This document shows, in pieces, positions 3,266 to 21,661 of a stretch of 64,000 nt of DNA. Within the stretch, counting starts at the first letter, position 1, and every line of letters begins with the position of its first letter. A program made the translations under genes and the position numbers. This stretch comes from Alphaproteobacteria bacterium (GTDB taxonomy: Bacteria > Pseudomonadota > Alphaproteobacteria > CAAHEQ01 > UBA3637), in assembly GCA_017539265.1 (NCBI GenBank), contig JAFYHG010000027.1, forward strand, positions 13,886-77,885, read 5' to 3'. The notes below the pieces were generated by a model. That model ran no database searches. It was not told the origin of the DNA and saw only the letters and a list, made by a program, of their open reading frames with translations.

Positions 3266-3274
3266 GAGTGAAAT

Positions 3275-4813: not shown

Positions 4814-5506
4814 TTATTCTAGACATTTATTTAAATCCCAGGGAGTGAGAAGTGCCAATATTTTTTCCGTTGGTTTTCCATTATCGGTTATAAAGATAAC
4901 TTCCAATCTTTTATTATTATTAAAGTCATCTTTAACCATCTCTTTTACCTCATCAACCGTTATGGTTTTTGGTATAAACCTGTAATGAACATCTGGATCG
5001 TTATATAACTCACAAAAATCCTTAAGATCTTTCATACAGATCTCATTAGTCTCCTCAATTATTTCTTGCTTATGTTTATTAAAATACAGCATAAGTGAGT
5101 GTGATGAGAAAACACCCTCTATAGCCCCATTTTTATCTAGTATTGGAGAACAGGTGTAATTTTTATCAAGCATCACTTGTATCACTGTATTAACTCTTTC
5201 ATTACCTGTGACTCTATATATTTTAGCTAAAGGTATTGCTATATCAATAGCTTTTGGAGGATACATTATCCTATCAGCTTCTGCCGCGAAAGTGGTGTAT
5301 AATTCATTAGTAAGATTGATAAATTTGCCATTACGAGCATTATCTTGATGTGTTAACAAATTTCGCAATGTTTTATAGAATTTCCATGTTCCAATGTTTT
5401 TTCCAAAACATTTATCGTCTAATATATTATCTATGTTAGGATTTTTCCTTTTGACAAAGCTTTCTATTTCAGTATATTTGCTTAAAAATTTATCTATTAC
5501 TGACAT
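4814..5506 (-). CDS. Hypothetical protein with an R-x4-H (HEPN-like) motif at the N-terminus and a CBS-like C-terminal half.
   Basis: TLRNLLTHQDN gives R-x4-H. The C-terminal half has CBS-like strings (SPILDKNGAIEGVFSSHSLMLYF; KILALLTPWDL). Lies on the same strand 91 bp downstream of the WYL regulator gene. Domain calls are tentative. Confidence 0.45.
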   Translation of the reverse strand: MSVIDKFLSKYTEIESFVKRKNPNIDNILDDKCFGKNIGTWKFYKTLRNLLTHQDNARNGKFINLTNELYTTFAAEADRIMYPPKAIDIAIPLAKIYRVTGNERVNTVIQVMLDKNYTCSPILDKNGAIEGVFSSHSLMLYFNKHKQEIIEETNEICMKDLKDFCELYNDPDVHYRFIPKTITVDEVKEMVKDDFNNNKRLEVIFITDNGKPTEKILALLTPWDLNKCLE

Positions 5507-5597
5507 CTTATAACCTTTCTAAATGAAATGTATACACGTTGAATTTTACTTAAAAAACATATAAAAATCAATACTAACTATTGACTAACCCACATTT

Positions 5598-6545
5598 TTA
5601 TTTTTCCTTTATCATTGTAGCCCAATTTTTGGGTTTAATAACTTTTACGTGATTACCCCAGGTATAAAGATGCCAATCCATTTCTTTTGAACCTCCGGCA
5701 CGGAATTTAACCGTTAAAGTTCCATCATCATTATGAATCATCTTTTGTTTGGGATGAAATTGATACTCTGCGGCACTACTGGCAACTTCCTTATCAAACA
5801 GCCATTCTACATCAAAAGGTTCCTCATGGAAAATGCCAAAAGACTGGGACATAAACTTTTCCAAAGAGAACTTTTTGTCTCGAGTGAAGTAATCCTTGGA
5901 AACTTTTATATTTCTAATACGGCTGATATCAAATGTGTACATTTGACCCCGCTTTACATTCCAAGCAATCAAATATGGCTTATTCCCATAAACAAAGCCA
6001 TATGGCCAAATAACCTTTTCCGTTGTTGCTACCTTACTTTCATAGGTAATTGTAATAATTTGACAACCCAAAATAGCATTTCTTAATATTTTCATAAATT
6101 CTTTATTGATACGGACTTTTGGGCCAGGGCGAAAAGCATATTTTTCAGATTCAAAGATCATCTCGGCATCTGGTTCATACTTGTTTAAAGCTGGTTTAGT
6201 CATTCCGGCCTTTATTTTATTTAATAATCGGTCAAGATTCTCACTGTCTTCTGGTGATTGTTCCTTCATTAAACGAATCGCTCGTTCTAGAGAATGTAGC
6301 TCTGGAAAATTGATAGCAATATGTTGATTTATTGTTTCAGGGGGAATACACCAAGACTTTCTATTCCCAGGGCCCTTAATCTCCTTCAATTGTGGGAATT
6401 GTTCCTTAATTTCATTTACATAACGAATAGCTGTCCGTTTATTTACCTGATATAATTCCATGATTTGGGATAAATTGACACCTTCCATAGAACTTTGCAT
6501 TCTGGTGACAATTTCCATTAAAATAGCGGTTTTTGTGTATGGCAT
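5598..6545 (-). CDS. WYL-domain transcriptional regulator (HTH + WYL; BrxR/CapW-like architecture).
   Basis: N-terminal HTH-like segment (LSQIMELYQVNKRTAIRYVNEIK). Middle region with the WYL signature (KPYLIAWNVKRGQMYTFDISRIRNIKV). Size about 315 aa, typical of this family. Confidence 0.7.
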   Translation of the reverse strand: MPYTKTAILMEIVTRMQSSMEGVNLSQIMELYQVNKRTAIRYVNEIKEQFPQLKEIKGPGNRKSWCIPPETINQHIAINFPELHSLERAIRLMKEQSPEDSENLDRLLNKIKAGMTKPALNKYEPDAEMIFESEKYAFRPGPKVRINKEFMKILRNAILGCQIITITYESKVATTEKVIWPYGFVYGNKPYLIAWNVKRGQMYTFDISRIRNIKVSKDYFTRDKKFSLEKFMSQSFGIFHEEPFDVEWLFDKEVASSAAEYQFHPKQKMIHNDDGTLTVKFRAGGSKEMDWHLYTWGNHVKVIKPKNWATMIKEK

Positions 6546-6605
6546 AGTACTCCTTTCTGTTATTGATATATCCTACAACAAAATGAAACAAATTGCAAGT
6601 AGTAA

Positions 6606-6622
6606 GTGACAAAAGTTGTCAC
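6606..6622. promoter_or_regulatory. Perfect 7-3-7 palindrome GTGACAA-AAG-TTGTCAC in the divergent intergenic region; candidate operator for the WYL regulator.
   Basis: Read directly in the sequence. Lies between the WYL gene start (6545) and the -35 of the plus-strand operon promoter. Confidence 0.45.
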
Positions 6623-6640
6623 CGATTTCCCTTTGATATC

Positions 6641-6669
6641 TTGACTTTTTGAAAATAATTCTGTATGTT
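6641..6669 (+). promoter_or_regulatory. Sigma70-like promoter TTGACT-17-TATGTT for the GIY-YIG operon.
   Basis: TTGACT at 6641-6646, a 17-nt spacer, TATGTT at 6664-6669. A GGAGG RBS sits ~10 nt before the ATG at 6707. Confidence 0.45.
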
Positions 6670-6706
6670 GAACGCGTTGTTTAACTTTTATTTGGAGGAC
6701 TAAAAA

Positions 6707-7150
6707 ATGTTGATAACTGGTACAAAAGAACAAGTTCATAATTTTCTAAAAACGGAGCCACATGAGTTTTATGTGTATGTACTCTGTGAACCCAACAAGA
6801 CTCCGTTTTATGTTGGGAAAGGCTGTGGAAACCGTATATTCCAACACGAATACGAAGCTGCACGCTCAGCATCTCGTAATCCCTACAAAACTAAAATGAT
6901 TAAAAACATTACGAAAAAGGATGGTAAGATTATCTACACAATAGATAGTGTACATAAAACTGAAGAAGAGGCTTTGATTCGTGAACGTGAGCTGATGCGT
7001 GAAATCGGCAGACCATTATTAACAAACCTGTCGGAAAAAGACTATAATACGACTCATGGTCGTTTGTACTGGTCTATTACGGGTATGTTAAAAGGCATCA
7101 ACAGAACTGTTTTTAGATTAACACATTCAGGAAAGGAGACATTACAATGA
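6707..7150 (+). CDS. GIY-YIG family nuclease domain protein.
   Basis: FYVYVL ... PFYVGKG ... NRIFQH ... EEALIRERELM ... LTNL reproduces the GIY/YIG/R/H/E/N catalytic pattern. Confidence 0.65.
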   Translation: MLITGTKEQVHNFLKTEPHEFYVYVLCEPNKTPFYVGKGCGNRIFQHEYEAARSASRNPYKTKMIKNITKKDGKIIYTIDSVHKTEEEALIRERELMREIGRPLLTNLSEKDYNTTHGRLYWSITGMLKGINRTVFRLTHSGKETLQ

Positions 7151-7461
7151 ATTTGGCTATGGTTTCGGGAACAATGGGTCCTATCAGAGATAAAGATATT
7201 TTTGTCAGAAATGACGGTGCAACAGTCGTAGATGGCTATATTGAAAAGACGTTTATGAAAGGCGAACAAGAGATCCGTAGTCATTATTACTTCACGGTTT
7301 CCGGAGGAAAAGCGGATAACTTACTAAAGTACTATCGGCCAGGTGATAGGGTTATGCTTACAGGGAAACTGGCAACCCGAGTTGACGAGGATGGACATTT
7401 TTGGGTTACTATTGTAGCATCTAGTTTTAGCAAGATGGATACGATAGATACGGATATTTAA
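7147..7461 (+). CDS. SSB-like OB-fold protein (short, no acidic tail).
   Basis: MNLAMVSGTMGPIRD ... ATVVDGYI ... YYFTVSGGKADNLLKYYRPGDRVMLTGKLATR ... HFWVTIVASSF parallels the SSB OB-fold layout. Overlaps the upstream gene by 4 bp (ATGA). Confidence 0.45.
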   Translation: MNLAMVSGTMGPIRDKDIFVRNDGATVVDGYIEKTFMKGEQEIRSHYYFTVSGGKADNLLKYYRPGDRVMLTGKLATRVDEDGHFWVTIVASSFSKMDTIDTDI

Positions 7462-7476
7462 GAAAGGAGAAAAATC

Positions 7477-7671
7477 ATGGGATTTTGGAGTGCTTTGTTA
7501 GGATTGGTTGATACACCGTCAAATAATGGATATAATAATGGTGGCAATCGTTATAATCGAGAGCCGACCGCAGAAGATTATATTCGTTCTGGTGAAATTG
7601 AAGAGGGTAATTATGATGATGGACAGAGAAATACAATTGACGAACACGGTCAATTACCAGATGACTGGTGA
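7477..7671 (+). CDS. Small protein (64 aa) with a hydrophobic N-terminus and an Asn/Gly-rich, acidic tail.
   Basis: AAAGGAGA RBS 6 nt upstream. In-operon position. No homology recognised. Confidence 0.35.
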   Translation: MGFWSALLGLVDTPSNNGYNNGGNRYNREPTAEDYIRSGEIEEGNYDDGQRNTIDEHGQLPDDW

Positions 7672-7729
7672 AGCTTTATTATCATATAGTTAATTATATA
7701 AACGGATTTTTAGAAAAGGAGACCATATT

Positions 7730-8149
7730 ATGAATACACACTTTATTCGCATTTGGAAAAACCATATTAAAAAAGAAAATGGTATTACAACAGAGTTTTT
7801 ATCAGTAAAGCCAAGCCCATTTAATAAGAAAGAATATGTTATGCCCGTTGTGGGGGATTATGCATATGTTTACCATTTGATACATGATGCAGAACCTTAT
7901 GAGAACACACCAGGCCGAGGACTTGATTGCTATGGAAAAATAACAAAAGTCACTGAAGAAAAAAGGAAAGTATCAATTTCGCTATCAGTTGAAAAAGAAA
8001 TGTATCCTAAAATTTTCAGATGTGATCAGCTGAAGGGATTAACGTACCCCAATGAACTAGATAAATGTATGTCGAATAGTTGTAATGAAGGTATAAATTT
8101 ATTGTCCCAAGAAGCAGATGACTTTTTACAAAAACAGTTTAATCAATAA
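7730..8149 (+). CDS. Hypothetical protein (139 aa).
   Basis: ORF within the co-directional operon. AAAGGAGA RBS upstream. Confidence 0.45.
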   Translation: MNTHFIRIWKNHIKKENGITTEFLSVKPSPFNKKEYVMPVVGDYAYVYHLIHDAEPYENTPGRGLDCYGKITKVTEEKRKVSISLSVEKEMYPKIFRCDQLKGLTYPNELDKCMSNSCNEGINLLSQEADDFLQKQFNQ

Positions 8150-8164
8150 ATTAAAGGAATCCCA

Positions 8165-9475
8165 ATGACAAAAGATATCCATACAATCAAATGCCCCAAA
8201 TGTGGAGAAGTTTTTCCGATTGATGAAAGCGGTTACGCCGCTATTGCCAGCCAAATTCGCGATAATGAGTTCCGAAAGGCTTTGGAAGAACGCTTTGAAC
8301 AAATGCAAGCGGATAAAGAAAGTGCCCTGAAACTTGCTCAGGTAACCGCTGACGCTGATAAAGAAAAATCTGTTTCTGCATTAAATCATCAAATTGATAT
8401 TTTAAATCAACAGCTAAAAACGATTAAAAAGGAAAGCGAACTTGATAAAGAGCAATCCATTGCGGAGTATAAACAGCAAATTACGGAGCTTCAGGCTCAA
8501 ATCAAGGCCAATGAAAAGGATAAAACCATTGCTGTTAATGCCGCACTGGAAGAAAATAAAGACACTTTGGTTGAAAAAGATAAAGAAATTATTGAATTGA
8601 AAGGGAAACTCCAAGGCGCCGAAAAGGATATCAAGCTTCAAGAGAAATCTTTAAAAGAAAAATACGAGATGGAATTGAAAAATAAGGACGAACTGATTGA
8701 TTATTATAAAGATTTAAAGATAAAGATGTCCACAAAAATGCTTGGGGAGACACTTGAACAGCACTGTGAAATCGCATTTAATATCATCCGTGCAACAGCT
8801 TTCCCAAATGCTTACTTTGAAAAAGACAATGACTCCAGAACAGGCAGTAAGGGGGACTATATTTTCAAAGAATCCACCGAGGATGGCATAGAATTCCTAT
8901 CCATTATGTTTGAAATGAAAAACGAAATGGATACAACAGCAACAAAACATAAAAATGAACATTTTTTCAAAGAATTAGATAAAGACCGTCAAGAAAAAGG
9001 ATGTGAATATGCCGTTTTGGTCTCTTTGCTAGAGTCGGATAGTGAGTTATATAACACGGGAATTGTTGATGTTTCCTACAAATATCCGAAAATGTATGTT
9101 ATTCGTCCACAATTCTTTATTCCTATAATCACTTTGCTCCGTAATACTTCCATGAATTCTGTTCAGTATCGCCGACAACTGGTCGAGTATAGAAACCAAA
9201 ATATAGATATTTCAAACTTTGAGGCTAAAATAGAAGATTTCAGAGACAAAATTAAGAAAAATTATCGTCTAGCAGGAGAGAGATTTAAAGCAGCAATTGA
9301 AGAAATTGACAAAAGTATAACACACTTGCAAAAAATTAAAGATGCCTTGCTTTCCACAGAAAGTAACTTACGCCTTGCTAACGATAAAGCTCAAGATTTT
9401 ACCGTCAAGAAACTCATTAAGGACAATCCGACAATGCAAAAGAAATTTGCAGAACTTAATCCACCAGAGGAATGA
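8165..9475 (+). CDS. DUF2130-like protein: N-terminal CxxC zinc ribbon, long coiled coil, and a C-terminal region with a D ... E-x-K (PD-(D/E)xK-like) arrangement.
   Basis: [29 protein letters not shown] matches the DUF2130 N-terminus as I remember it. Heptad-rich K/E middle. KGDYIF ... IMFEMKNE near the C-terminus. Confidence 0.6.
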
Positions 9476-9516
9476 GTACAGAGCTAAAAGATTTATGTAA
9501 GCATTGATTATATAAG

Positions 9517-10266
9517 ATGATAAAAGGAATTTGCAAATATTGTGGTCAAGAGAAAGAACTTATCAATTCTCATATAATTCCGAAAAATTTATGTCAAATT
9601 GATAAGAATGGCCCAATGGTTGGAATAGACTCTCTAACAAAGACTTTTGACCATAATCCTATACATCAAAACGGAGCAAAAGCTTACCTTCTGTGTAAGG
9701 AGTGTGATAATCTATTAGGTAAGCTAGATAGATATGGTAGTAAAGTGTTTAAGAAGATAATTCCAAATCATAAATGGGACATAGTAGATGGTGTAGAACT
9801 ATGTAAATTATTACCAGATGAAGTAGATTACTGGACATTAAAAAAGTTTTTAATTTCTGTGTTGTGGCGTGCTTCTGTAGATAAGAATGGGCCTGATTTA
9901 GGAAGATATGAAAATATTGCACTAAAAATACTTAAGGAAGAGCTTCCTGATAATTCTAACTATTTTGTTCCTTTCGTATACATACTAGACACTAAGACAC
10001 CCTTAGACTTTTCTATGGGGATTTTTGGCAATAAAACTTTAGGGAAACACATATATATTATTCACTTCCCTCATTATGAGGTAATGATTATACCTTCTGC
10101 TGAACATTCACGAGACCCAAAACTTATGGAACTATACAAGGCTTTATTCAATTGTAACCATATAATAGTTCAGAAATTTTCTATACCAACCCTGATTGAC
10201 CAACAATTGATTAACACATTAAAGATATGTCAAAAGAATGAGTTACAAAAAAAGAAAAAGTTATAA
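9517..10266 (+). CDS. Cys-cluster protein with an HNH-like arrangement (CxxC ... HIIP ... CxxCDN).
   Basis: CKYCGQEKELINSHIIPKNL and LLCKECDNLLGK. The spacing is longer than in a canonical HNH, so this is tentative. Confidence 0.4.
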   Translation: MIKGICKYCGQEKELINSHIIPKNLCQIDKNGPMVGIDSLTKTFDHNPIHQNGAKAYLLCKECDNLLGKLDRYGSKVFKKIIPNHKWDIVDGVELCKLLPDEVDYWTLKKFLISVLWRASVDKNGPDLGRYENIALKILKEELPDNSNYFVPFVYILDTKTPLDFSMGIFGNKTLGKHIYIIHFPHYEVMIIPSAEHSRDPKLMELYKALFNCNHIIVQKFSIPTLIDQQLINTLKICQKNELQKKKKL

Positions 10267-10305
10267 ATTTTCTTTTATTACAGAGAAGACGAATAAGTAG
10301 AACAC

Positions 10306-10887
10306 TTATATCGTCACATTCTCTACAGCATTTGAGAGCATTTTCTCGTTATAATTGAAGTACCTTTGAGTTGTCCCAATATTGCGGTGGTTGGCGAGTT
10401 TTTGAACCAAACAGATATTTGTGCCGGCATTGATAAGGCGACTCACGAACAAATGGCGTCCAAGATGGCTTCCCCCGTCAATATTGAACTTACTGTAAAT
10501 GTTTGAAAACATTCTGCTAATACTAACACGATTGAAAGGTTTTCCTAACTTTTGCGAGGTAAAGAGATACATTTCTGGGGTAATTTCTTCATTTTTGGTC
10601 TTTAGGTAAGAAAGATATTCCTTAAACTCTTTCTTCATTTGAGTATTAAGGTAATAAGAACACCCGAACTTGCCTTTGTTTTTATCCTTATCCAGACAAA
10701 TGACATCCTTGACCTTTAGGTCGGAAGTGTAGACATCCCCGACTTGAAGGTAAGCAAAATTTATAGACCTCATGCCATTGAGCGAGCATAGGAACATCAT
10801 CCTAATTTGTTCCGCATGTCGCATCCCCTGAATATAGGTTAAAATATCTTTGATTTTTTTATCATCTATAAAAACTTGGTTTACCAT
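10306..10887 (-). CDS. Tyrosine recombinase, catalytic domain only (193 aa).
   Basis: R (LNGMRSI), HLGRHLF (H-x-x-R), NHRNIGTTQRY (terminal H/Y) reproduce the integrase catalytic residues. No N-terminal core-binding domain is present. Confidence 0.65.
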   Translation of the reverse strand: MVNQVFIDDKKIKDILTYIQGMRHAEQIRMMFLCSLNGMRSINFAYLQVGDVYTSDLKVKDVICLDKDKNKGKFGCSYYLNTQMKKEFKEYLSYLKTKNEEITPEMYLFTSQKLGKPFNRVSISRMFSNIYSKFNIDGGSHLGRHLFVSRLINAGTNICLVQKLANHRNIGTTQRYFNYNEKMLSNAVENVTI

Positions 10888-10967
10888 TTTTTATCCTTTC
10901 GTAAAAATTGAACAGTTTTATGCGGCCCAGGACTATAGAGCCGATTTTTTTCAAAGCCAAGCCCTAA

Positions 10968-12788
10968 ATGTTAAAAAATGTTATTTTTTTGAATAAAATT
11001 AAACATTTTGAAATACTTGCCTGGAATGACGTTTTCAAAAACATTGATTTTATAAGGCTATTAGGGATAATGTTAAATAATGTATGTTTTTTAACATTTT
11101 TCATTTTTCTGGACTTTTGGATGATTTTATTGTATACTGCGACCAGTTTTTTAAATTTTCATGGATTCAGTATGCGAATAAACCGTCCAAATTATTTTAG
11201 CGAGATTGACGAGCAAGATGTCCTCTTCTATGGAGAGGAAGGACGCTTTCGGAGAATATCCCTAGATTTCTGGAAAGATGTTTACCCAAATATATTGCAA
11301 GCGTACTTATCAACCAAACAACCCGAAAATGATTTTAAGGACACTTTTGTAGACCCGTCATTTTATCCGATAGGTCCAGAACATGCACTACGTTTATGCA
11401 CGAGGGTGTTTACAGATATCTTTCCTTCGTGTTTCGAAACAAATTACTCGGAACTTCCTGATAGACCTGGTAAGTTATATGAAAAGGATATAGAGCCACT
11501 TAAAGACAAAAAAGGGCTTGTTGGGGCTATTGCGAGAACATGGAACAAAATAGGCAAATATGGAGACTATCATTTTTTACAGCTCCTAGAGATTGTTAGC
11601 ACATTTAAAAATGGTATTGTAAAACTTACGGATAAACTGCCAGACCCACTATATGCTGATTTTGTAAAAGAAATACGTGCAGTCTTTTATAAGTACGCAG
11701 ATTTATTGAATAATAAAGAAATCAGAAAAGAAATTGATAAAATCGTTTTCTTAAAGCATCCGAATGCAACTAAAAAGATTAAGTCCCCAAGAGGATATCG
11801 GATAGTTAAGGCAGAATACGCCCGTTGTGAACTTATTTTTGAAAATGTGGATTTTGGTAGGAAAGAACAGGAGCTTTTCTGGAACATACTAACGATTCCA
11901 GAGGGTTTTGTTCCAATGGAAACAGCTTTTTTCCTTAATTGTAGATTTTCTGCAACCTATACATGTCCTACAAAAGTAATTCGTCCCAGGGCTTTGTTCA
12001 GATACTGCATATTTGAAAAAGAATTTGCCCCAGCTCCATATATCCAGCAATCATGGAGATTTATAAACTGTACAATAAAAAACAAATTTAATTTCAGAAA
12101 AACAGTGCTACGCAGAGGGCTTTTCTTTCATGGATGTGTGTTTGAGTCGGAAAGTTCATTCATATTTGATAATTCACGTGGCAACCGTTGGGTTCCGAAA
12201 GATTACCCATATAATAAACTTTATTTTACAGACACAATATTTGGCGGTGATTTCTCCATAATGAATACAAGTTTAAGTCATACTGAATTTGTATTGAAGA
12301 ATGTCGCATTTTTCAAAACATTCCGCTTTGATGAAGTCAGATTAAGTGATAAGTGCACTTTTGAACGTATTAGTTTTGCTTTGGGAAGTACTCCGCAAAT
12401 AATACAATGTAAACAAACTTTTGTTGAAATGCTCCAATTACACGGATATCATGCGGAACTTGATTCACTGGGATTATTAAGTAAAAATTCTAACAAAAAA
12501 AGAGCTCAACGCTTTTATACATCATGGCTTCATCCAATCGAAGCAGCCGAATTTCTTTCCAAAAGCATAAGTTGGTTAGCCAAGAAAAGACAAGCCGACA
12601 GATTAAAGAAAACAAAGACTTCTATACCATTTGTTGGGGAAAAGAAAAATATTTTATACCCCAAGACAGCCTTACAGGCATTCCGTTCACAAGATTGGAA
12701 TAAGTTAAAAGAACTCTGTAAAAAATATGGAGTTGGTGAGAAAGAAAAACCCAAATCTGCCGACATTAGCATATTTGATGTAGATTAA
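10968..12788 (+). CDS. Large hypothetical protein (start uncertain; hydrophobic N-terminus).
   Basis: Long ORF. Its last ~95 nt are duplicated downstream of the abi gene. Confidence 0.45.
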   Translation: MLKNVIFLNKIKHFEILAWNDVFKNIDFIRLLGIMLNNVCFLTFFIFLDFWMILLYTATSFLNFHGFSMRINRPNYFSEIDEQDVLFYGEEGRFRRISLDFWKDVYPNILQAYLSTKQPENDFKDTFVDPSFYPIGPEHALRLCTRVFTDIFPSCFETNYSELPDRPGKLYEKDIEPLKDKKGLVGAIARTWNKIGKYGDYHFLQLLEIVSTFKNGIVKLTDKLPDPLYADFVKEIRAVFYKYADLLNNKEIRKEIDKIVFLKHPNATKKIKSPRGYRIVKAEYARCELIFENVDFGRKEQELFWNILTIPEGFVPMETAFFLNCRFSATYTCPTKVIRPRALFRYCIFEKEFAPAPYIQQSWRFINCTIKNKFNFRKTVLRRGLFFHGCVFESESSFIFDNSRGNRWVPKDYPYNKLYFTDTIFGGDFSIMNTSLSHTEFVLKNVAFFKTFRFDEVRLSDKCTFERISFALGSTPQIIQCKQTFVEMLQLHGYHAELDSLGLLSKNSNKKRAQRFYTSWLHPIEAAEFLSKSISWLAKKRQADRLKKTKTSIPFVGEKKNILYPKTALQAFRSQDWNKLKELCKKYGVGEKEKPKSADISIFDVD

Positions 12789-12790
12789 AC
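12695..12790. repeat. Direct repeat copy 1 (96 bp), including the 3' end of the 10968-12788 gene.
   Basis: 95/96 identical to 13985-14080 by direct reading. Confidence 0.9.
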
Positions 12791-12839
12791 GGTTTATCTT
12801 ATTGAAAATAAATACGATATAAAATTAATTAAAAAAGTG

Positions 12840-12868
12840 TTGACTCATAATTTTTTTTATATTATAAT
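12840..12868 (+). promoter_or_regulatory. Consensus sigma70 promoter TTGACT-17-TATAAT upstream of the abi gene.
   Basis: TTGACT at 12840-12845, 17-nt spacer, TATAAT at 12863-12868. Confidence 0.5.
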
Positions 12869-12914
12869 ATACATAACAAGCCCTTCCCGCTAAAGGCAGA
12901 GATGTACAGCGAAT

Positions 12915-13979
12915 ATGGAAGGGCATTATTTTAAGGTTATAGAAATGCAGAGAGTCAAATTTTTTAAAGAATCAAAAACCCCTGATGAGCTTATAGAACA
13001 ACTTGTTAAACGTGGTATGGTAATTACAAATCGTGATTATGCTAAAGATATTTTATTTAAAATTAATTATTATCGTTTATCAGGATATTGGTTTAAATTT
13101 CAAAATAAATGGTTAAAGCAATTGCCAGTTCCAGAAAACGCAACCAGTGAAGAAATTGATGAACTGAATAATCAATTTATCAGACGGGTATCCTTTGAAA
13201 ATATTGTTGATATATACAGATTTGATAGTAAATTACGTTCTTTATGCATAGATGCACTGGAGAAAATAGAAATTGGAATTAGCTCTGTTCTCTGTAATCA
13301 TATGTGCCAAAAGTATGGCGGATATTGGTTTTTAAATAAACAGCTTGTGCAAAAAGTCACAAAAAAAACTAAAGAAGGAGAAAAAGTTTTATTTAATCAT
13401 GATTTATTAATGGAAGACATTGATAAGTTATTAGCAAAAAATAAACGAACAAAATGTATCAAAAATTTTCGAGTAAAATATACTGATGAATATCCTCCTT
13501 ACTGGATATTAGCTCAATTGGTAACATTTGGAACTTTATCGAAAATTTATTCTTCTTTACCCCCTGTAGATAAAAAAGAAATTGCAAAGATGCTAGGTGT
13601 AAATGATGAACTGTTATCACACAGCCTCACATTACTGTCTTATATTAGAAATATTTGTGCTCATTATGCCCGCTTATGGGATAATGATAATAGTGTTGTC
13701 CCTTTGAATATTAATTTTAATCGCATAGAACCCAACAGTATTTTTAATTATCGCTTTCATACAAATGGAAAGAATAGTGCAACATTCTTCCCAGTATTTT
13801 ATTTAATAACCTTATACTTATATATGCTTTATCCGAAATCTAAATGGTGCTCCATTGTTGAACAAAAAATTAAAGAATATGAGAAATTAACAGATTCATT
13901 GGTTTCTTTTAAGACCATGGGATTTTTAGATACGTGGAGAGAATTACCATTATTCATAAGAATGCTCAAGAATGCGTAA
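12915..13979 (+). CDS. Abi_2 family (AbiD/AbiF-like) abortive infection protein.
   Basis: N-terminus ... TPDELIEQLVKRGMVITNRDYAKDILFKINYYRLSGYWF is a classic Abi_2 start. Later, IRNICAHYARLWDN gives the R-x4-H (HEPN) motif of this family. Confidence 0.8.
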   Translation: MEGHYFKVIEMQRVKFFKESKTPDELIEQLVKRGMVITNRDYAKDILFKINYYRLSGYWFKFQNKWLKQLPVPENATSEEIDELNNQFIRRVSFENIVDIYRFDSKLRSLCIDALEKIEIGISSVLCNHMCQKYGGYWFLNKQLVQKVTKKTKEGEKVLFNHDLLMEDIDKLLAKNKRTKCIKNFRVKYTDEYPPYWILAQLVTFGTLSKIYSSLPPVDKKEIAKMLGVNDELLSHSLTLLSYIRNICAHYARLWDNDNSVVPLNINFNRIEPNSIFNYRFHTNGKNSATFFPVFYLITLYLYMLYPKSKWCSIVEQKIKEYEKLTDSLVSFKTMGFLDTWRELPLFIRMLKNA

Positions 13980-13984
13980 CTTAA

Positions 13985-14080
13985 TTGGAATAACTTAAAA
14001 GAACTCTGTAAAAAATATGGAGTTGGTGAGAAAGAAAAACCCAAATCTGCCGACATTAGCATATTTGATGTAGATTAAAC
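13985..14080. repeat. Direct repeat copy 2 (96 bp).
   Basis: Matches 12695-12790 with one mismatch. Confidence 0.9.
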
Positions 14081-14596
14081 GATTCCCTTATGTAAAATTA
14101 GGTCGAACATAATGTCCCAAGCTGTTTGTCCTTTCTTATTTTTTAAATTGGTTAAGTCTGCTCCATAGTCCAAGAAGGCATAAAGAAGTTTCTTTTTACG
14201 GTGGATGTTTTTATCAAAAAGGACTCTCATTAAAGCTGTATTGCCCCAAATGTCCTGTGTATCTAACTCCGCCCCTGAATCCACAAATAACCAGGGCACT
14301 ATGGCTTCACATTGTCCTTCAACCGCACGCATTAGAGGAGTTTCCCCGTGTTGGTTGGTCTTGTTCACATCTCCGCCCATGTTTATTAAGGCTTCAATTC
14401 TTTCCCCATCTTTAAAATAATTCATAGCGTATAAAAATGGAGTCATGCCAATCGGGGGCATAGGTCTGTTTAAGTCTGCTCCTTTCTTTACATAGTATTG
14501 TATGAGTTTCAAATTCCTTTCTTTAATGGCTTTTAATAGGTCTTCCTGTATATTCATAGTCTCTCCTTTTAAATTATTTATCCCTACTGATTCCAC
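14075..14596 (-). CDS. Ankyrin-repeat protein.
   Basis: ANK consensus stretches (GMTPFLYAMN ... GETPLMRAVEGQ ... GNTALMRVL ... GADLN). Confidence 0.7.
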   Translation of the reverse strand: MESVGINNLKGETMNIQEDLLKAIKERNLKLIQYYVKKGADLNRPMPPIGMTPFLYAMNYFKDGERIEALINMGGDVNKTNQHGETPLMRAVEGQCEAIVPWLFVDSGAELDTQDIWGNTALMRVLFDKNIHRKKKLLYAFLDYGADLTNLKNKKGQTAWDIMFDLILHKGIV

Positions 14597-15028
14597 TTAT
14601 GAATCAAAAATATTTTTAAAGAGTTGAACCAAATTCGTGTGTACCTCTCTTTGTAATAGAGGGACTTGTTTCTCACTTAAATGGAAACCATGTCGCTTCA
14701 TGCTGTCCAAAATGTAGCGAACAGTTTCTGGTTTTACTCTAACCAACATCTTCATCAAATATTCAAATTGGCTCGGTCGGTTCAGGTGTAATCCGTAGTA
14801 TTTGTATTTGAACAATAACTCCAGCATCTTGTCCCAGTTCGTCTCACAAAACTGATACACCCAAGCCAGCGGCTGGTTGTTAAAAGACTTCTGAATATCT
14901 GCCCCTTTGAGTAAAATCTCCACCATTTCCATGTCTGGATGGAATGTGCTAAACTGGCAAAGGGGTGTTTCCTCTTTCTTACAATCGGCTTTCCCCAGTA
15001 TTGTTTCCTTGATTTGTTCACTGTCCAT
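14597..15028 (-). CDS. Hypothetical protein, possibly a degenerate ankyrin (MEMVEILLKGADIQ).
   Basis: Zero-nt gap to the downstream ankyrin gene. Confidence 0.4.
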   Translation of the reverse strand: MDSEQIKETILGKADCKKEETPLCQFSTFHPDMEMVEILLKGADIQKSFNNQPLAWVYQFCETNWDKMLELLFKYKYYGLHLNRPSQFEYLMKMLVRVKPETVRYILDSMKRHGFHLSEKQVPLLQREVHTNLVQLFKNIFDS

Positions 15029-15029
15029 C

Positions 15030-15401
15030 TTAATACTCCATGTTCCAGAACAAAACTTTTCCTTGATAGTAAAATTTCCATTTTCCCCTCGGACAATCCG
15101 TAAAAGGAATATGCTGGTAGTAAATTAATCTTACCCTTTTCCTAAATGCTATTCTGGCTTTGTTGCCCTCTTTGACAGTTAGCGTAATTCCTATCAAGTC
15201 ATTGTTTAATTCTGGCTTCGTTTTGATAACACTCTCCACAAGGTCTAATAACCAATATGCCCCAGCTTTCTCACAAAATATTTTTACCCCGTCCGTGTAC
15301 TCGTATGATATGTGCTGGTTGGTGTAATAATTTTCAGTCCCCGTACAGAAATACAAAGCCTGTCTTACTTGTAATGCTCTTTCATCAACTTGGTTATCCA
15401 T
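15030..15401 (-). CDS. Hypothetical protein (123 aa).
   Basis: First gene of a tight minus-strand three-gene operon. Confidence 0.4.
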   Translation of the reverse strand: MDNQVDERALQVRQALYFCTGTENYYTNQHISYEYTDGVKIFCEKAGAYWLLDLVESVIKTKPELNNDLIGITLTVKEGNKARIAFRKRVRLIYYQHIPFTDCPRGKWKFYYQGKVLFWNMEY

Positions 15402-15653
15402 AATGTCTCCTTTCTGTTATTACAAAAAGGATTGTAACATAAAGGAACGTTTGCGTTCCCGAGGCATATGTTGTAAAGAAATTGCTCGGTTCAAATACCC
15501 GATAGCCCTTATGTATACAGCAATTTCCTTAAAAAACAAGTGCATTTTAAAAAAGTGTAAAAAAATGTAAAAAAAGGCTTGATTTTATCGTTCCTTATTT
15601 TGCATAAAGCAAACTGCCGATAAATACCCACAGATATTATAAAAGGAGCCAAA

Positions 15654-16244
15654 ATGATTTATGGGTATTGCAGATGTTCAACTGATAAGCAGACGGTATC
15701 ACATCAACACTATGAAGTTCAAAAGTTCGCAGCCACCAATGGTGTTCAAGTTGATGAATGGATTGAGGAAACCATAAGTTCAAGAAAACCACTTGCCAAA
15801 AGAAAGTTGGGTGAGTTATTAAATAATATGAAAGAAGGAGATGTTCTGATAACCCCCGAAATCTCCCGTATTGGTAGAAGCCTATTAGAAATAATGTCTA
15901 TTTTACAGACTTGTTTAGAAAAGAACTGCCAGATATGGACAATTAAAGAGAACTACCGCTTGGGTGCTGATATCCAAAGCAAGGTGCTAGCGTTTGCGTT
16001 TGGCTTAGCAGCCGAAATCGAGCGTAATCTTATTTCTCAACGCACAAAGGCAAGTTTGGAATCATTGAAAAAGAATGGTAAAAAACTCGGTCGTCCGTTT
16101 GGGGCTAAAAATAAGTCCCTGAAACTGTCCAAAAATCGCACCAGAATCAACAGTCTTCTTGCTAAAGGCTTGCCCAAGGCTCAAATTGCCCGCATTTTCG
16201 GTGTGGATAAGATGACTATGTATAGGTTCTTAAAGGGAGAATGA
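15654..16244 (+). CDS. Serine recombinase (resolvase/invertase family).
   Basis: GYCRCSTDKQ catalytic N-terminus with the serine nucleophile. C-terminal HTH (KAQIARIFGVDKMTMYRFL). Confidence 0.8.
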   Translation: MIYGYCRCSTDKQTVSHQHYEVQKFAATNGVQVDEWIEETISSRKPLAKRKLGELLNNMKEGDVLITPEISRIGRSLLEIMSILQTCLEKNCQIWTIKENYRLGADIQSKVLAFAFGLAAEIERNLISQRTKASLESLKKNGKKLGRPFGAKNKSLKLSKNRTRINSLLAKGLPKAQIARIFGVDKMTMYRFLKGE

Positions 16245-16308
16245 GTGTTTGATTCCATTATTAAATCGTTTCCGAATAAATAAAAATGTTAGGAAATAAG
16301 GAGTCTTA

Positions 16309-16743
16309 ATGATTGTCGATTTAGATAAAATCTCTGAAAATATGAACCATATTAAGGATAAATTAGGGGAAGCCAAGCAGATTGTGCCACCACAGAAAAA
16401 GCCCATCAAATCTGTGGATGAGGAGGTAGATGACGAACTGGAGAAGCCATATTATAAGTATCAGGAAGAGGACACAAGATTCATAACAAAATGCTATAAG
16501 TATCTAAGGAAACTTGGTCTTGTGGAATCCCAATACCAGTTCTCAGAACAGTTCCTAAACAAGAACAAATACTATTTTGGCATGATACTATGTGAACAAA
16601 GGCATCCATCTATTGATTCAATCCACAACCTGATACGAAATATCTCAGACCTGAATGACGGGCTTGTCAACAGGATGTATTTAGAAAGGCTTTATGAAGA
16701 GGGACAAGCCATGATTACCAACCGTCTTTTGAAGTATTTTTGA
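16309..16743 (+). CDS. Hypothetical protein (144 aa).
   Basis: ORF with an AGGAGTC RBS-like sequence upstream. Confidence 0.4.
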   Translation: MIVDLDKISENMNHIKDKLGEAKQIVPPQKKPIKSVDEEVDDELEKPYYKYQEEDTRFITKCYKYLRKLGLVESQYQFSEQFLNKNKYYFGMILCEQRHPSIDSIHNLIRNISDLNDGLVNRMYLERLYEEGQAMITNRLLKYF

Positions 16744-16772
16744 CATCTGCTTTTTCAACATTTTTGCCTAAG

Positions 16773-16880
16773 TGGTACACAAGGGTGATACACACTTTTG
16801 ACAATGTGGACAAGTAACCTTTTGATATACATGAAAAAAGTGATATTCATCACCTATGTACAGGGGTGATACACCATTTG
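16773..16880. repeat. Cluster of GTGATACAC-type motifs at the island/core boundary.
   Basis: GGTGATACAC occurs at 16784-16793 and 16865-16874. GTGGTACACA at 16773. Imperfect palindrome GTGATATTCATCAC at 16840. Confidence 0.3.
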
Positions 16881-17111
16881 AAAATACCCCAAAAAAGCCC
16901 AAAAAAAATCTCAACTTTTTGAAATGCTTATTTTTTTGCCCAGGCTGCCCCCCTTCACTCCCGCCACTATTAAAATAGAGCCTTGTTTATCAAGGCTTTT
17001 TTATTGCCTAAAATACGGGATTTTAGGTGTTACACCAAGACATCAAAAACATCTCATTTATGAGCAGATCAACCTGAAAAACTTTTCTTTTGGTAAAAAT
17101 ACTTGTTCTTC

Positions 17112-17145
17112 AGCAAAACTCCCCGCCATGGCAGGGAGTTTTTAA
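17112..17145. terminator. Bidirectional rho-independent terminator hairpin (CTCCCCGCCATGGCAGGGAG flanked by A- and T-runs).
   Basis: Nearly perfect 8-bp stem with the GCCATGGC palindrome. T-run on the plus side, A-run on the other. Confidence 0.55.
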
Positions 17146-17158
17146 GGTTTTAGAAGAT

Positions 17159-20100
17159 TTAGAACTTCCACTTAAATCCGGATTTTAAGGATGTTCGGAC
17201 TTCCTTGTCTATGTAGGACATAATCGATCCGTACAGGCTGTAATCCGACCAATCATAGTCAAACCCTGCACGAATGACCCCACGGTTATCACTCCGCTTC
17301 TCGTCTCTAAGCATAAACGTTCCGTCCATACCCTCCATCCCGACGCGCAGTTTATACGGATCCGCAAACTCGTGATAAGCCGCCACTCCTGCCGTCAATT
17401 TAATCTTCGACGTCTTCGTCAGTTCCTTATCCTTCGTCAGGTATAGTCCGATACCGCCTTCAACAGAATACGTATTCTGGCTCTTGATGTTCAGGGCATA
17501 GTCCTTATCTTCTTCATGGCCTCTCTGAGTGTAGCCCAAGATATTAAACTCCGCCGCCGGTTCCAATGTCCATTCGCCGAATGTTAATGGATAGCGGGCT
17601 TCATTCATTAAACCATAAACACGTTTCTCTATCGTTCCGTCATAGTTCTTATTATCGAACCCAGTCCGGTCATACTTACCCCGTGCATACCCGATCCGCG
17701 GTGATGTCATTAGGTTAAAGCCATGTGTTCTGTATCCGATCGGCACAACGAGTTGATACATGCTGTCATGTCTATCGTCATCATCATGGGCATTATCCGA
17801 ACGTGTGTTCATGAACGCAACACCAAGACCCACCGACCATCTGCCATCCCGTTTGTTATACAGGCTGTATCTGGCATCTGATCCATTGTCGCCACGGAAC
17901 GCCATAGGCCTTACAGATCCTGCTAATGCAAACGCTTTCTCTTTGTTATGGAAGAGTTTTTCATTCATGTCAAAGTTGAGTTCCCTCATCATTGTCATGT
18001 CTTCGAAATTAAAGCGCGAGAGCATCTCTTTACCCGTCATCTTATCCAAACTGCTGGTTAAGCTATGGACATCACCGAAGCTCTTTAACTTATTAAAGAA
18101 CGCTTCATTCTTCCCTGACGCATAGTTCCGTGTTAAGAACTCTGCCAGGCTCGCATTCTTCGTCGCCGTGTCAAACCCTCGCATCGTCATCACAACATCT
18201 TTACCGTTATCCGCTAAGCTGGCATCAAACATTGCCGACTCGGATATCAGATTTAGTTCACTTGCATCCTGGGCAATAATCGCATCAGAAAGCGTGTAGA
18301 CTTGTTCAAAACCACTTGTTTCACCGTCTACATACAATTTTCCTTTAATACTGTCCGCCGAGAAAGATCCGCCGTTAAGCAACATAATCTTTCCGTTTCG
18401 ACCGGCTAATGCATCCAGATCCAATTCTGTATCAAAATTGACATTGCCTGAATTTTTCATATTCATACTTCCGATATCGGACATTCCGCCCAATTGAGCA
18501 AAATCGGAGGCCTTTGACAAAACTCTATGCACCCCATTAAAGGTTCCCTTATTGACAAATTCTAAATTTGCTCGGGTTGCTCCCATATCTTTATAGGTCA
18601 CGGTATATGTTTTTGAATCAACTGTCGGAACGAAGAAATGTCTCCATTCTTCAATATCACCATTAATTGTTCCCGTTTTTTCATTAACCAATTTAGACGG
18701 GCCTAACACCATAACGCCTTCGGAAATAGTTCCCTCATTGATAAGTGTTCCCTTAAATAACGTTACACCGTCATTAATACTTCCCTTATTGGTAAAATAG
18801 GCACTGCCGTCCAATTGAACACTACCGACTGTTCCTTCGTTTACACCAACGATATTACCAAACGCCGAGACATCTTCAACAGAGGCAGAAGCCTTATTTG
18901 AAAAGGTAATTTGACCGTCAAATCCATAGAGAGTAACCTCTCCGTAAATGTGTCCTTCGTTTTTAACCCAAATAGGTGCCCCCACGGATATCCCGATAAC
19001 ACTAGCAGGTTGATAGGTATAGCCGCTGCTGCTTCCTATCGTTCCCGAGTTTTCAAAATTCGCACCATAGACATAAACCTCATCTACATCGAAATCATCA
19101 TCCGGATTTTTAACCTTAACCGTTGCCGAATTCTTTAAAGTCGTTTTTCCACCGCTGAGTCCAGGATTTCCTGCATATAGAACAGGGCGGTATTCCCAAT
19201 CTATCGTATCATCTGGTTCACCAAAATCTTTGATATGCTTGGCTAGCCATAGAATTTCATAGTTATTTTCATTAAAACTTGATGGCGGATTTATTTGGGA
19301 TAAATTTGCCTTTTGAAGTTTTGACGTATCATCAATAACTTGATTTGTTGTGTTCGTATAAGTTTGTCCGGCGGATACTCCTTTATCCTTCCATAAAACT
19401 CGAACACCCGTCGGTAAATTTGCCCAATTCTTTCCGGAGAGAGGTCCTGTCCATGCGGAATTGACGCATACCCCATTACTGGGTACATATCCGGCCGCAC
19501 AGGAACAAGTTGCCTCATCCACATTGCTTCCAGATAATCCGCAAGTTCCGCAATCATTTCCTTTCCAGTTACCGGAACATGAACAGGCTTGAACCGTTCC
19601 GCCTTCGGAAGTTCCCCCGTTTTGGCATGCTTGGCATGTTGTCCCATTCAAGTATTCATTTTCATTACAATTAAGAACACATACATTACCGCTGGGAATA
19701 TATCCGCCCGTACAATCGCAACTTGTTGAATCGACATGGTCTCCCGATAATTTACAGGTTCCGCAATCATCTCCTCCCCAATTACCGGAGCAACTACACG
19801 ATAAGCTTGTTCCACCGTCAGAGGTTCCCCCGTTTTGACATGGTGTACAACTTGTCCCGTCATAGTAATTATTAACCTCACAGGCCGCATAATCCGATTC
19901 TACGTTATCATTAACAACAATTCTTCCGGCATTAATCAATGTAGAACCGCTGCCCATATCAATGCCGTAACTTTTATCTTCATCCGTGTCCGAAATAGTA
20001 ATCAGCCCTCTGTTTTTAACCGTTGAGTTATCCCCAACTTTAATACCATAGGCTTTTTTATTTGCAATATTTTGCCCTGTGATTTCAATTTCACCCGAAT

Positions 20101-21661
20101 TTTCAACCAGAACATTGTTCTCACCAAAGATACCGTATAAGTCCCCTAACCCGGCAACACTAATCGTACCGGAATTAGTAATATGACTTCCCGTTGTACC
20201 GTAAATTCCGTAAGCTTCCGGTCCCTTTGCCGTTACATCTATTTTACCGGAATTTATAATAGTTCCCCCATTTGAATATAGACCATAGGCCTTCCCGTCA
20301 CCATTTGAAACAATTGTGATTGTACTTTGGTAAACGTCACCGTTTTCATTGGACGTAATACCGTCAGATTCGTTATACATACCATAACTGTTCCCATTTG
20401 TTTCATTTGTTACGGAAATATTTCCGGTAGCAAGCAGACCTTCATAAGAAGAATCCAGTGTTCCCGTTTGATAAGCGTTGTATATATCCCCGTTTCCATA
20501 AATACCATATGCATCGGATACATTATTCAAATCAGTATCTAAATTATTTATAATTTCAATATCTCCTGAAATCGGAGAAGAATCAGAAACCCTTTTACCT
20601 GTTGCCAATGCGTTGTAAACGGTATTTCCCCACATACCATAAACTTTTCCTGTTCCCTTATTTGTTATCCGAATTGTCCCAAATGAACCGCCACCCGGAC
20701 AATTATCACAAATATAACCATTATAAATTTCCGGTGATGTTTCTTCTCCGTGCATACCATAAACATTTCCGTCTCCCGTATTTTTAATCAGAATGTTTCC
20801 ATAGGCATATTCCGCACCATTACATGATTCGTCATAAGTATAGGCATTATACATATAACTCTGACCGCTCATTCCGTATACATCCCCATTCCCCGTATTT
20901 GTGATATCAATGTTGATTGAGGATGCATCACTTTGATCCATATAAGCATATGCATTATACATAGTTTTATTTTTGGAATTGCTCATTCCATACACATCAT
21001 CGTCATTATCGTTTACAATGACAATTTGTTTATTATTAACATCGCCCGTCACGCAATTACCATTATCATCAAAAATACCCGATTCGCAAACTGGTTCCGG
21101 CGGTAAGCAATCACCATTCGCATCTTTGCCATAGGCACATTTTTTCTCTTTTTTCTTGCTTCCGCCACCGCCGCCACCACCGGCAGCCAAAGCAATTCCT
21201 CCACCGATAACGGCTACCGCTCCAACTCCGATCCCGACCATAGCCGCCGTGGATAAACCTGTTTCTGTTGCAACAGCACCTCCCGAAGCTGCCGTTGCCC
21301 CTGCCGCGGCATTCATTTCTTGTGCCCACGCGGTATATCCCTCATTAAAGGCTTTAATCTGTTCCGGCGGTATCTTTTGCGTACAGGGGTGTTTCACATT
21401 TGCACCGGCAACGCGCAACGCGTTAAAACTCTTATAATCATTATTATAAACTGCACGACATAGGTTCGTATTTCCGTCCCGACCAATTGAGTCAACTTTC
21501 TTTCCCAAAGATTTCAAGGCCCTTACATTTCCATTCTTGGCATAATTGTAAATCTGACTCATCGTCAGCGGCGCTTCCACTGCAGCCAAGACTGGTGTTG
21601 TCAAAATTGTATTGGATGTAAACATCCCGGCAACTACACATAACCCTATAATTTTACGCAT
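17159..21661 (-). CDS. Large autotransporter-type outer membrane protein (1500 aa) with two tandem EGF-like Cys-rich modules in the passenger.
   Basis: Signal peptide (MRKIIGLCVVAGMFT ... VLAA). Many x-Y-G-[MI] passenger repeats. Tandem ~60-aa Cys-rich modules (CQNGGTS.GGT ... CSCSGNW.G.DCGTC.LSG ... C.C..GY.PS.G.CV). C-terminal ~280 aa with alternating beta-strand pattern ending FKWKF (terminal aromatic). Confidence 0.8.
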   Translation of the reverse strand: MRKIIGLCVVAGMFTSNTILTTPVLAAVEAPLTMSQIYNYAKNGNVRALKSLGKKVDSIGRDGNTNLCRAVYNNDYKSFNALRVAGANVKHPCTQKIPPEQIKAFNEGYTAWAQEMNAAAGATAASGGAVATETGLSTAAMVGIGVGAVAVIGGGIALAAGGGGGGGSKKKEKKCAYGKDANGDCLPPEPVCESGIFDDNGNCVTGDVNNKQIVIVNDNDDDVYGMSNSKNKTMYNAYAYMDQSDASSINIDITNTGNGDVYGMSGQSYMYNAYTYDESCNGAEYAYGNILIKNTGDGNVYGMHGEETSPEIYNGYICDNCPGGGSFGTIRITNKGTGKVYGMWGNTVYNALATGKRVSDSSPISGDIEIINNLDTDLNNVSDAYGIYGNGDIYNAYQTGTLDSSYEGLLATGNISVTNETNGNSYGMYNESDGITSNENGDVYQSTITIVSNGDGKAYGLYSNGGTIINSGKIDVTAKGPEAYGIYGTTGSHITNSGTISVAGLGDLYGIFGENNVLVENSGEIEITGQNIANKKAYGIKVGDNSTVKNRGLITISDTDEDKSYGIDMGSGSTLINAGRIVVNDNVESDYAACEVNNYYDGTSCTPCQNGGTSDGGTSLSCSCSGNWGGDDCGTCKLSGDHVDSTSCDCTGGYIPSGNVCVLNCNENEYLNGTTCQACQNGGTSEGGTVQACSCSGNWKGNDCGTCGLSGSNVDEATCSCAAGYVPSNGVCVNSAWTGPLSGKNWANLPTGVRVLWKDKGVSAGQTYTNTTNQVIDDTSKLQKANLSQINPPSSFNENNYEILWLAKHIKDFGEPDDTIDWEYRPVLYAGNPGLSGGKTTLKNSATVKVKNPDDDFDVDEVYVYGANFENSGTIGSSSGYTYQPASVIGISVGAPIWVKNEGHIYGEVTLYGFDGQITFSNKASASVEDVSAFGNIVGVNEGTVGSVQLDGSAYFTNKGSINDGVTLFKGTLINEGTISEGVMVLGPSKLVNEKTGTINGDIEEWRHFFVPTVDSKTYTVTYKDMGATRANLEFVNKGTFNGVHRVLSKASDFAQLGGMSDIGSMNMKNSGNVNFDTELDLDALAGRNGKIMLLNGGSFSADSIKGKLYVDGETSGFEQVYTLSDAIIAQDASELNLISESAMFDASLADNGKDVVMTMRGFDTATKNASLAEFLTRNYASGKNEAFFNKLKSFGDVHSLTSSLDKMTGKEMLSRFNFEDMTMMRELNFDMNEKLFHNKEKAFALAGSVRPMAFRGDNGSDARYSLYNKRDGRWSVGLGVAFMNTRSDNAHDDDDRHDSMYQLVVPIGYRTHGFNLMTSPRIGYARGKYDRTGFDNKNYDGTIEKRVYGLMNEARYPLTFGEWTLEPAAEFNILGYTQRGHEEDKDYALNIKSQNTYSVEGGIGLYLTKDKELTKTSKIKLTAGVAAYHEFADPYKLRVGMEGMDGTFMLRDEKRSDNRGVIRAGFDYDWSDYSLYGSIMSYIDKEVRTSLKSGFKWKF

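Follow-up and report, generated by a model that had tools for sequence, protein, structure and literature searches.

We examined an abortive infection gene, abi, and the direct repeats that bracket it in 64,000 nucleotides of DNA from an Alphaproteobacteria bacterium (assembly GCA_017539265.1, contig JAFYHG010000027.1, positions 13,886 to 77,885; this whole stretch is called the window, and coordinates are counted from its first letter). The abi gene lies on the + strand at 12945-13979 and encodes a 344-amino-acid (aa) protein of the AbiD/AbiF family (Abi_2, with a HEPN Rx4H motif), as assigned by profile and structure-database matches. Upstream of it on the same strand is a gene for a 606-aa protein (10968-12788), which belongs to a small conserved family and whose 3' end is duplicated. 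Downstream, on the - strand, is an ankyrin-repeat gene (14075-14596; Pfam Ank families), the original tail-to-tail neighbour of the 606-aa gene. From the end of the one gene to the end of the other we found, all on the + strand, a left repeat copy (12694-12791), an AT-rich spacer whose origin is unmatched (12792-12839), a sigma-70-type promoter (12840-12868), a 45-nt 5' leader hairpin (12880-12924) that starts about 5 nt past the predicted transcription start, abi, and a right repeat copy (13984-14081). The span between the repeat copies is a 1.19-kb cassette of spacer, promoter, hairpin and abi that ends at the stop codon. Its GC content (12792-13983) is 28.7% and that of the flanks is 34-38%.

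The two repeat copies are 98 nt long and identical at 97/98 positions, the sole mismatch being G12704 versus C13994. This confirms the direct repeat around abi in a preliminary description of the same DNA, which gave it as 96 bp at 95/96; the boundaries shift by one or two bases. A 63-nt core of the repeat has two matches in the 64-kb window with 0 expected by chance, and a blastn-short search of the window and all fetched loci gave no further copy of it. The left copy consists of the last 95 nt of the 606-aa open reading frame (ORF; 31 codons and the stop) plus 3 nt, which agrees with the earlier view that the repeat copies the 3' end of the upstream gene. It keeps the ancestral AAG (Lys) of a conserved DWNKL motif and is the functional 3' end of the 606-aa gene. 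The abi stop is followed after 4 nt by the right copy, which has no start codon for the 606 frame, is non-coding for that frame and carries the single substitution; its last 7 nt are the stop and final two codons of the ankyrin gene that converges on it. Read-through of the abi stop codon, which shares its frame with the 606-derived frame of the right copy (13977-14078), would append 33 residues. Two other independent metagenome assemblies (L001 and L002) have an identical arrangement with the same single mismatch, which excludes an assembly artefact. A possible 17-nt extension of the repeat (12792-12809 versus 14082-14098) had a marginal score only and was treated as chance. We also observed that the end of the cassette, TAACTTAA, recurs 14 nt on in the right copy by way of the G-to-C mismatch, the left copy reading TAAGTTAA.

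The Abi protein matched Pfam Abi_2 (PF07751) over profile positions 2-184 of 184 (1.2e-50; 172.8 bits, cut-off 25.6), PADLOC AbiD (9.1e-61), PHROG 2158 (1.9e-51) and the PDB entry 8vz6, 'Abi family protein' (1.4e-26). Its HEPN Rx4H motif is RNICAH (R245-H250 in the numbering of a 354-aa form), and 24 aligned clade members show no variation at R245, N246, C248, A249 or H250. These matches and the conserved motif uphold its identification as an Abi_2 gene with a HEPN motif, and it is an ordinary member of that family. By analogy with the family, Abi may be a HEPN ribonuclease toxin that is triggered by phage infection. The real start is probably the ATG at 12945, giving 344 aa and matching the call in L002. 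An alternative ATG at 12915 (354 aa) falls within the stem of the leader, and most other loci have ACG at that position. The promoter, TTGACT-17-TATAAT, matches the consensus at 11/12 positions, and both its position and its spacing to the leader are conserved in five other loci (L012, L013, L017, L023 and L027), so that abi does have a promoter of its own, as proposed before. We found no terminator-like site 3' of abi on the + strand. Transcripts would thus continue into the ankyrin-DUF6876 operon in antisense.

A large protein collection contained eight homologues of the 606-aa protein, with a conserved C-terminal block. Their loci (L003-L011) come from gut and rumen metagenomes and from two metagenome-assembled genomes (MAGs) labelled 'Alphaproteobacteria bacterium', and a scan of a genome collection for near relatives returned just two MAGs, at 46% identity. 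In 8/8 related loci the 606-family and ankyrin genes are directly tail-to-tail, from a 17-nt overlap to a 67-nt gap, and all eight have a single copy of the repeat sequence and no abi. The relatives carry no other cargo at the 606/ankyrin junction. We then removed 12792-14081 from the window in silico, joining 12791 to 14082. This restored the tail-to-tail layout, with a TTAA stop/stop overlap. The empty architecture in relatives and the clean reconstruction in the window together indicate that the abi cassette was inserted where two convergent genes meet. The proposal in the preliminary description, a cassette-style insertion by which the upstream gene keeps its 3' end, is therefore borne out by related genomes, compared by architecture at 46-48% identity in the 606 protein; neither a duplication without an insert nor a dispersed copy of the repeat turned up.

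The related loci largely share a module in which a small tyrosine recombinase (or a serine recombinase) is joined by the 606-family gene and the ankyrin gene that converges with it; in most of them it also has a short ORF, DUF6876 and DUF6626. The 606-aa protein itself has no Pfam, NCBIfam, PHROG or PADLOC family match. At its C-terminus there is a weak excisionase-type HTH_17 signal (E = 0.014, below cut-off), and its middle part looks by eye like a repetitive beta-helix-type region.

Related cassettes were found at other sites. The closest Abi homologue (L012; 84% aa identity, and 80.5% nt identity over cassette positions 40-1181) is prophage-borne, with the tape-measure gene just downstream. 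The gene on its other side is a homologue of the gene upstream of the tape-measure gene in the prophage of L017. Homologues in L017-L022 (58% aa) occupy the same prophage slot before the tape-measure gene, and the neighbours in L017 are tail genes. All of these lie between phage genes, and the window copy is in a non-phage module. Two further contexts lie between non-phage genes: abi of L013-L016 (58%) is between the housekeeping genes mfd and recG, and that of L027 (52%) is between def and tpiA. Common to these loci are the promoter at a fixed spacing, the leader of about 45 nt and an ORF up to the stop codon. A related prophage (L023) has the same slot, promoter and leader with an AlbA_2/Schlafen-type ATPase as cargo. 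No recombinases like those of the window were found near the prophage, mfd/recG or def/tpiA insertions.

Homology of the window cassette to L012 starts at cassette position 40 (about 12831). We compared the spacer (12792-12839) with the promoter-upstream sequence of six other cassette loci as a test for a remnant of the gene that precedes abi in the phage loci, and found no significant similarity. A blastn search of the cassette against INPHARED phages and PLSDB plasmids gave no match. One identical Abi protein (P0018; 52% identical to that of the window) is present on 23 mostly short contigs (L033-L042) in at least three flank contexts, amid arrays of REP-like GCCGTT / GTCATTGCGAG...GGCAATCC repeats. 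This points to recent movement, or to rearrangement by way of the repeats, in another host. Embedded as they are in REP-like arrays, these contexts were unusable as clean extra insertion events.

At the mfd/recG site, abi of L013 is bracketed by a 26-nt direct repeat (25/26 identical) that is unrelated to the 98-mer and whose right copy begins at the abi stop codon. Empty versions of this site were sought through close RecG homologues. In L030 (RecG 95% identical) and L031 (84%) mfd and recG are adjacent and there is no abi. The empty site of L030 holds a single copy, ...TTATTAATAACTCGGCACTGTGCATAAGTTG|CAGGCGG..., and the duplicated sequence is intergenic target DNA. The insertion in L013 duplicated 21-26 bp of target, the 5 ambiguous bases being an AATAA microhomology with the abi end at the right junction. 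Since L030 has a single copy, the duplication in L013 arose at insertion and was not carried by the cassette, so that duplication of target DNA de novo recurred at an independent site. An att core cannot differ from site to site within one cassette, which argues that each event makes its repeats from the target. The best reading of the window repeat is thus a target duplication from the insertion and not the att site of a recombinase.

Flanking repeats were significant only for the window and L013 (0/300 shuffles each). None was significant at abi of L012, L017, L027, L028 or L033 or at the non-abi cargo of L023, and the phage, def/tpiA and viral contexts have none. The 98-mer has no attC-like or significant single-stranded DNA fold (-6.6 kcal/mol, z = -1.5). 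It contains a weak 9-5-9 imperfect palindrome, and its DNA conservation in relatives is limited to the stretch coding YG-GEKE. No terminal inverted repeats were found at the cassette ends, where a score of 12 was reached by 835/1000 shuffles. We compared these properties with those of known mobile units. Insertions of the cassette share no core and have no cognate integrase associated with them, as a site-specific integrative cassette would; there is no attC-like site or IntI-type integrase, as for an integron gene cassette; and the lack of terminal inverted repeats, the duplications of 98 and 21-26 bp and the absence of a transposase from the cassette set it apart from transposons, insertion sequences and miniature inverted-repeat transposable elements.

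Two recombinase genes lie near the cassette. One encodes a 193-aa tyrosine recombinase with only the catalytic domain (10306-10887, - strand; Pfam Phage_integrase 2e-17, PHROG 216 integrase 1.3e-27). Its NCBIfam matches to Xer, Fim-type invertase and integron-integrase models are all sub-threshold (21.7 bits against a cut-off of 265 for the integron integrase), and it has no N-terminal core-binding domain. It is found in the same position beside the 606-family gene in L006, L009, L010 and L011; the 606-family gene is almost always paired with a 193-aa tyrosine recombinase. The other encodes a 196-aa serine recombinase (15654-16244, + strand), described earlier as a serine resolvase, which matches the NCBIfam model NF009949 for Mpi-family master DNA invertases (6.4e-83; 277.4 bits, cut-off 272) as well as Pfam Resolvase and HTH_7. 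An invertase of this family suggests that there may be invertible promoters somewhere in the genome, and a quick inverted-repeat scan of 15350-17250 and 21500-21900 gave nothing convincing. The preliminary description proposed that the cassette was moved by these nearby recombinases. This part found no support: related cassettes elsewhere lack them, the duplications vary between sites, the repeat has no attC-like fold, and an Mpi-family invertase and a catalytic-domain-only tyrosine recombinase fit poorly as movers. A role for the nearby recombinases, as far as sequence can predict it, is not supported.

The leader hairpin has a P1 stem of 8 bp, a P2 stem of 4 bp (CGCU/AGCG), a variable P3 and invariant single-stranded AAAG and AAUA. 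In the window its minimum free energy is -20.5 kcal/mol (z = -2.6). An RNAalifold consensus over seven distinct loci had 15 pairs, 4 of them with compensatory changes, and P1 covaries. With a covariance model (R1) built from these seven loci, each clade abi that was examined proved to have the hairpin upstream, as far down as 43% protein identity (L028/L029). In the R1-derived alignment 98.6% of cells are paired, compared with at most 49% in slide controls. Matches elsewhere include L012:323-367, L013:7979-8023, L017:7936-7980, L023:896-940, L024:804-848, L027:5099-5143, L028:3862-3929 and L033:3936-3980. Rfam searches of 10000-17200 (7.2 kb) at E <= 1 and of 12840-12970 (131 nt) at E <= 10 returned chance-level matches only, without the abiF RNA (RF03085). 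The hairpin leaves the ribosome-binding site and the start at 12945 uncovered. We also considered a leader peptide (MYSEYG...) in the hairpin loop and rejected it, as its ATG is absent in L028 and the stems covary.

The leader is not specific to abi. It is upstream of the AlbA_2 cargo in L023, directly precedes an invertible tail-fibre segment in L024, and in L052 stands before an acidic ORF of 354 aa, for which Pfam gave no match, and a capsid gene. A hairpin that follows the cargo in phage contexts belongs to the phage backbone. When viral contigs were scanned for the leader a strict pattern gave 0 matches and a relaxed pattern was needed. In viral contigs of 203-287 kb we found a shortened form (28-32 bits with R1) inside arrays of 14-20 tRNAs, just downstream of tRNA-Thr(TGT) (L044:7730-7799, L045:3808-3877, L048:6401-6470, L049:3258-3327 and L050:10739-10808). 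Close to the L050 copy are a YrlA-like RNA that scores below threshold (11108-11224) and a TROVE/Ro60-like gene (11345-12772). In these jumbo-phage arrays the hairpin may act in processing or as a decoy against defence. The places where it occurs support a phage origin of the cassette, and its presence upstream of non-abi genes argues against an antitoxin RNA specific to abi. Candidate roles for the leader are a stabiliser of the mRNA 5' end, a processing site, a regulator, a decoy or an antitoxin. A separate observation concerns L024:860-2800 (and also L025 and L026), where a tail-fibre-tip shufflon begins right after the leader hairpin. It has alternative C-terminal segments ending YLEFYIN, YLNFFIN or YLMFFVN on both strands and inverted sites CAAGGTTTAAA / TTTAAACCTTG.

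The unit has counterparts among described systems. Phage morons are self-contained units of promoter and gene between phage genes, and the window unit has the same composition. Its Abi matches PHROG 2158, 'abortive infection resistance protein', which is in the moron category, its closest homologues stand just before a prophage tape-measure gene, and other cargo occupies the same slot behind the same promoter and leader. It differs from a moron in lying outside a phage, in a chromosomal recombinase-linked module, in having no terminator of its own and in its 98-bp target duplication. In the Clostridioides difficile prophage phi027, AbiF_Cd is encoded with the noncoding RNA RCd22, which neutralises AbiF (PMC12373285). 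That system likewise consists of a single Abi_2/AbiD/F HEPN toxin gene with a SigA-type promoter and a co-transcribed 5' structured RNA in a prophage setting. In contrast to RCd22 and RF03085, the window leader is one hairpin and not two motifs with a terminator, is unmatched at E <= 10 and is not abi-specific. For AbiD1 of Lactococcus lactis, a member of the same protein family, translation is reported to be limited by 5' mRNA structure (PMC2661086). Control through mRNA structure is by analogy plausible for the window abi; the case differs in that the window hairpin leaves both the ribosome-binding site and the ATG at 12945 free. By the example of AbiF-RCd22 and abiD1, the leader may regulate or stabilise abi mRNA.

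We propose, with somewhat more confidence than doubt, that abi is part of a phage-derived, moron-like defence cassette that was inserted by illegitimate recombination with duplication of the target. Its foreign GC content, its prophage relatives and the moron category of PHROG 2158 support a phage-derived cassette, and the window copy would most simply be such a cassette landed in a chromosomal island. The likely route is an illegitimate one. Neither integrons nor classical att recombination would fit, and nor would the duplications of fixed length that transposases make. A single-gene unit of the phage moron type would have landed exactly at the convergent 606/ankyrin junction. In one possible route a DNA fragment would have been captured where a break had left long staggered ends, which were then filled in; another is a replication template switch to the donor with a return 98 nt behind the departure point. 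Either way, the 98-bp target duplication left both convergent genes with intact 3' ends. A partial parallel is SPDIR in Acinetobacter baylyi, described (bioRxiv 10.1101/2023.11.22.568220) as illegitimate recombination at microhomologies during replication. As there, ectopic DNA would be inserted without a dedicated recombinase at variable junctions, and the right junction of L013 has a 5-nt microhomology. The product described there is a micro-indel and not a 1.2-kb gene with a 98-bp duplication, and the route in the window is inferred.

Several observations weigh against this proposal. The 606 relatives are only 46-48% identical and no near-identical strain without abi was found, so that the ancestral state is deduced from architecture and not read from a sister strain. 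A duplication is present in only two of about five independent insertion contexts, and 98 bp is long for a fill-in or template-switch event. Both duplications begin 0-4 nt past the abi stop codon, a hint that the right end is defined and that the mechanism may be a dedicated one and not random illegitimate joining.

Such a mechanism, not described before, would have a non-autonomous cassette with defined ends that an enzyme of phage or host, acting in trans, inserts at staggered cuts set far apart, with target duplications of variable length as the result. The shared position of the right junctions in two independent de novo duplications speaks for it, as do the recurrence of the compact unit in at least five unrelated contexts and the identical P0018 protein in at least three flank contexts. 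We nevertheless consider it unlikely: the cassettes have no conserved terminal sequences or inverted repeats, the distance from their left ends to the promoter varies (49 and 28 nt), the phage and def/tpiA contexts have no duplication, and the unit shared by the P0018 contigs is larger and lies within REP-like arrays. We also know of no bacterial enzyme that yields duplications of 21-98 bp, which counts against it. A broader version, in which promoter, hairpin and abi form a non-autonomous mobile defence cassette with an undescribed mode of insertion (21-98 bp duplications, right end at the stop) and the hairpin is a new phage RNA element that could be a regulatory or antitoxin handle, and a decoy in jumbo-phage tRNA arrays, appears improbable to us.

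Other explanations for the repeat have to account for both the window and L013. Integrative elements typically leave direct repeats that restore the 3' end of the target gene, and the preliminary description likened the insertion to them. In such a model the cassette would be a mini integrative element with the repeat as attL/attR, and a 1,290-bp circle with a copy of the 606 3' end would be integrated and excised by the adjacent tyrosine or serine recombinase. Like integrative elements and integron cassettes, the window has direct repeats that keep the target 3' end intact and recombinase genes nearby, two of them within 2 kb, and the repeat contains the weak palindrome. Unlike them, repeats of the window type are target-derived and vary between sites, and there is no attC-like fold, no IntI-type integrase and no other cassette, or indeed any cargo, at the 606/ankyrin site of the relatives. 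Related cassettes elsewhere have a different duplication or none and no such recombinases, the repeat at the L013 site derives from the target as its empty counterpart shows, conservation of the 98-mer is confined to the coding YG-GEKE block, and neither the Mpi-family serine enzyme nor the truncated tyrosine enzyme, far below the integron-integrase cut-off, is a convincing candidate. We regard an att site as very improbable. A Campbell-type single crossover, in which circular or concatemeric DNA carrying abi beside a 606 3' end recombined with the chromosomal copy, would duplicate exactly the homologous segment. For RecA 98 bp suffices, and the single mismatch could mean a slightly diverged donor. 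It requires a prior, unexplained joining of abi to a 606 3' end, though, leaves L013 with its duplicated 21-26 bp of intergenic target DNA unexplained, and finds no second 606-type element with abi among the eight homologues, this sequence aside; it is quite unlikely. Tandem duplications are common in bacteria, and a duplication of the 606/ankyrin junction followed by later arrival of the cassette at the duplication joint, or replacing it, would end in an identical structure. This would need two coincident events at the same base, no relative has the bare duplication, and L013 with its single-copy empty site favours one step. We consider a two-step origin extremely unlikely.

Little is understood of the way in which single defence genes pass between phages, islands and core-genome sites, and this locus is a clean case. 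The comparison of occupied and empty sites, together with a second, independent case in the same cassette family, argues against the default view that the nearest recombinase did it. The family has a searchable signature of promoter, hairpin, abi ending at its stop codon and a variable flanking duplication. The 98-bp repeats make abi precisely deletable by homologous recombination, through which RecA could remove the cassette, and presence or absence of the gene could flip within a population. The covarying hairpin, unmatched in Rfam, ties Abi_2 cassettes to other phage morons and to jumbo-phage tRNA/Y-RNA regions. The locus is of modest interest for its variable-length target duplication and its unclassified phage RNA hairpin, as a variant and not a new kind of system.

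The surroundings of the module were also inspected. Window positions 1-17000 are low in GC (31-36% versus 40-45%) and rich in defence genes. They encode a ResIII/TnsA-like 895-aa protein, a PIF1/RecD-like helicase, a WYL regulator, a GIY-YIG protein with a weak PD-T4-3 match and DUF2130, followed by the recombinase/606/ankyrin/DUF6876/DUF6626 module. The relatives hold other defence genes (type I restriction-modification, AAA_15 with RloB) on the same side of the module. Adjoining the module at 17159-21661 is a gene for a 1500-aa autotransporter-like surface protein with cysteine-rich repeats, and the relatives have different large surface proteins at this position.

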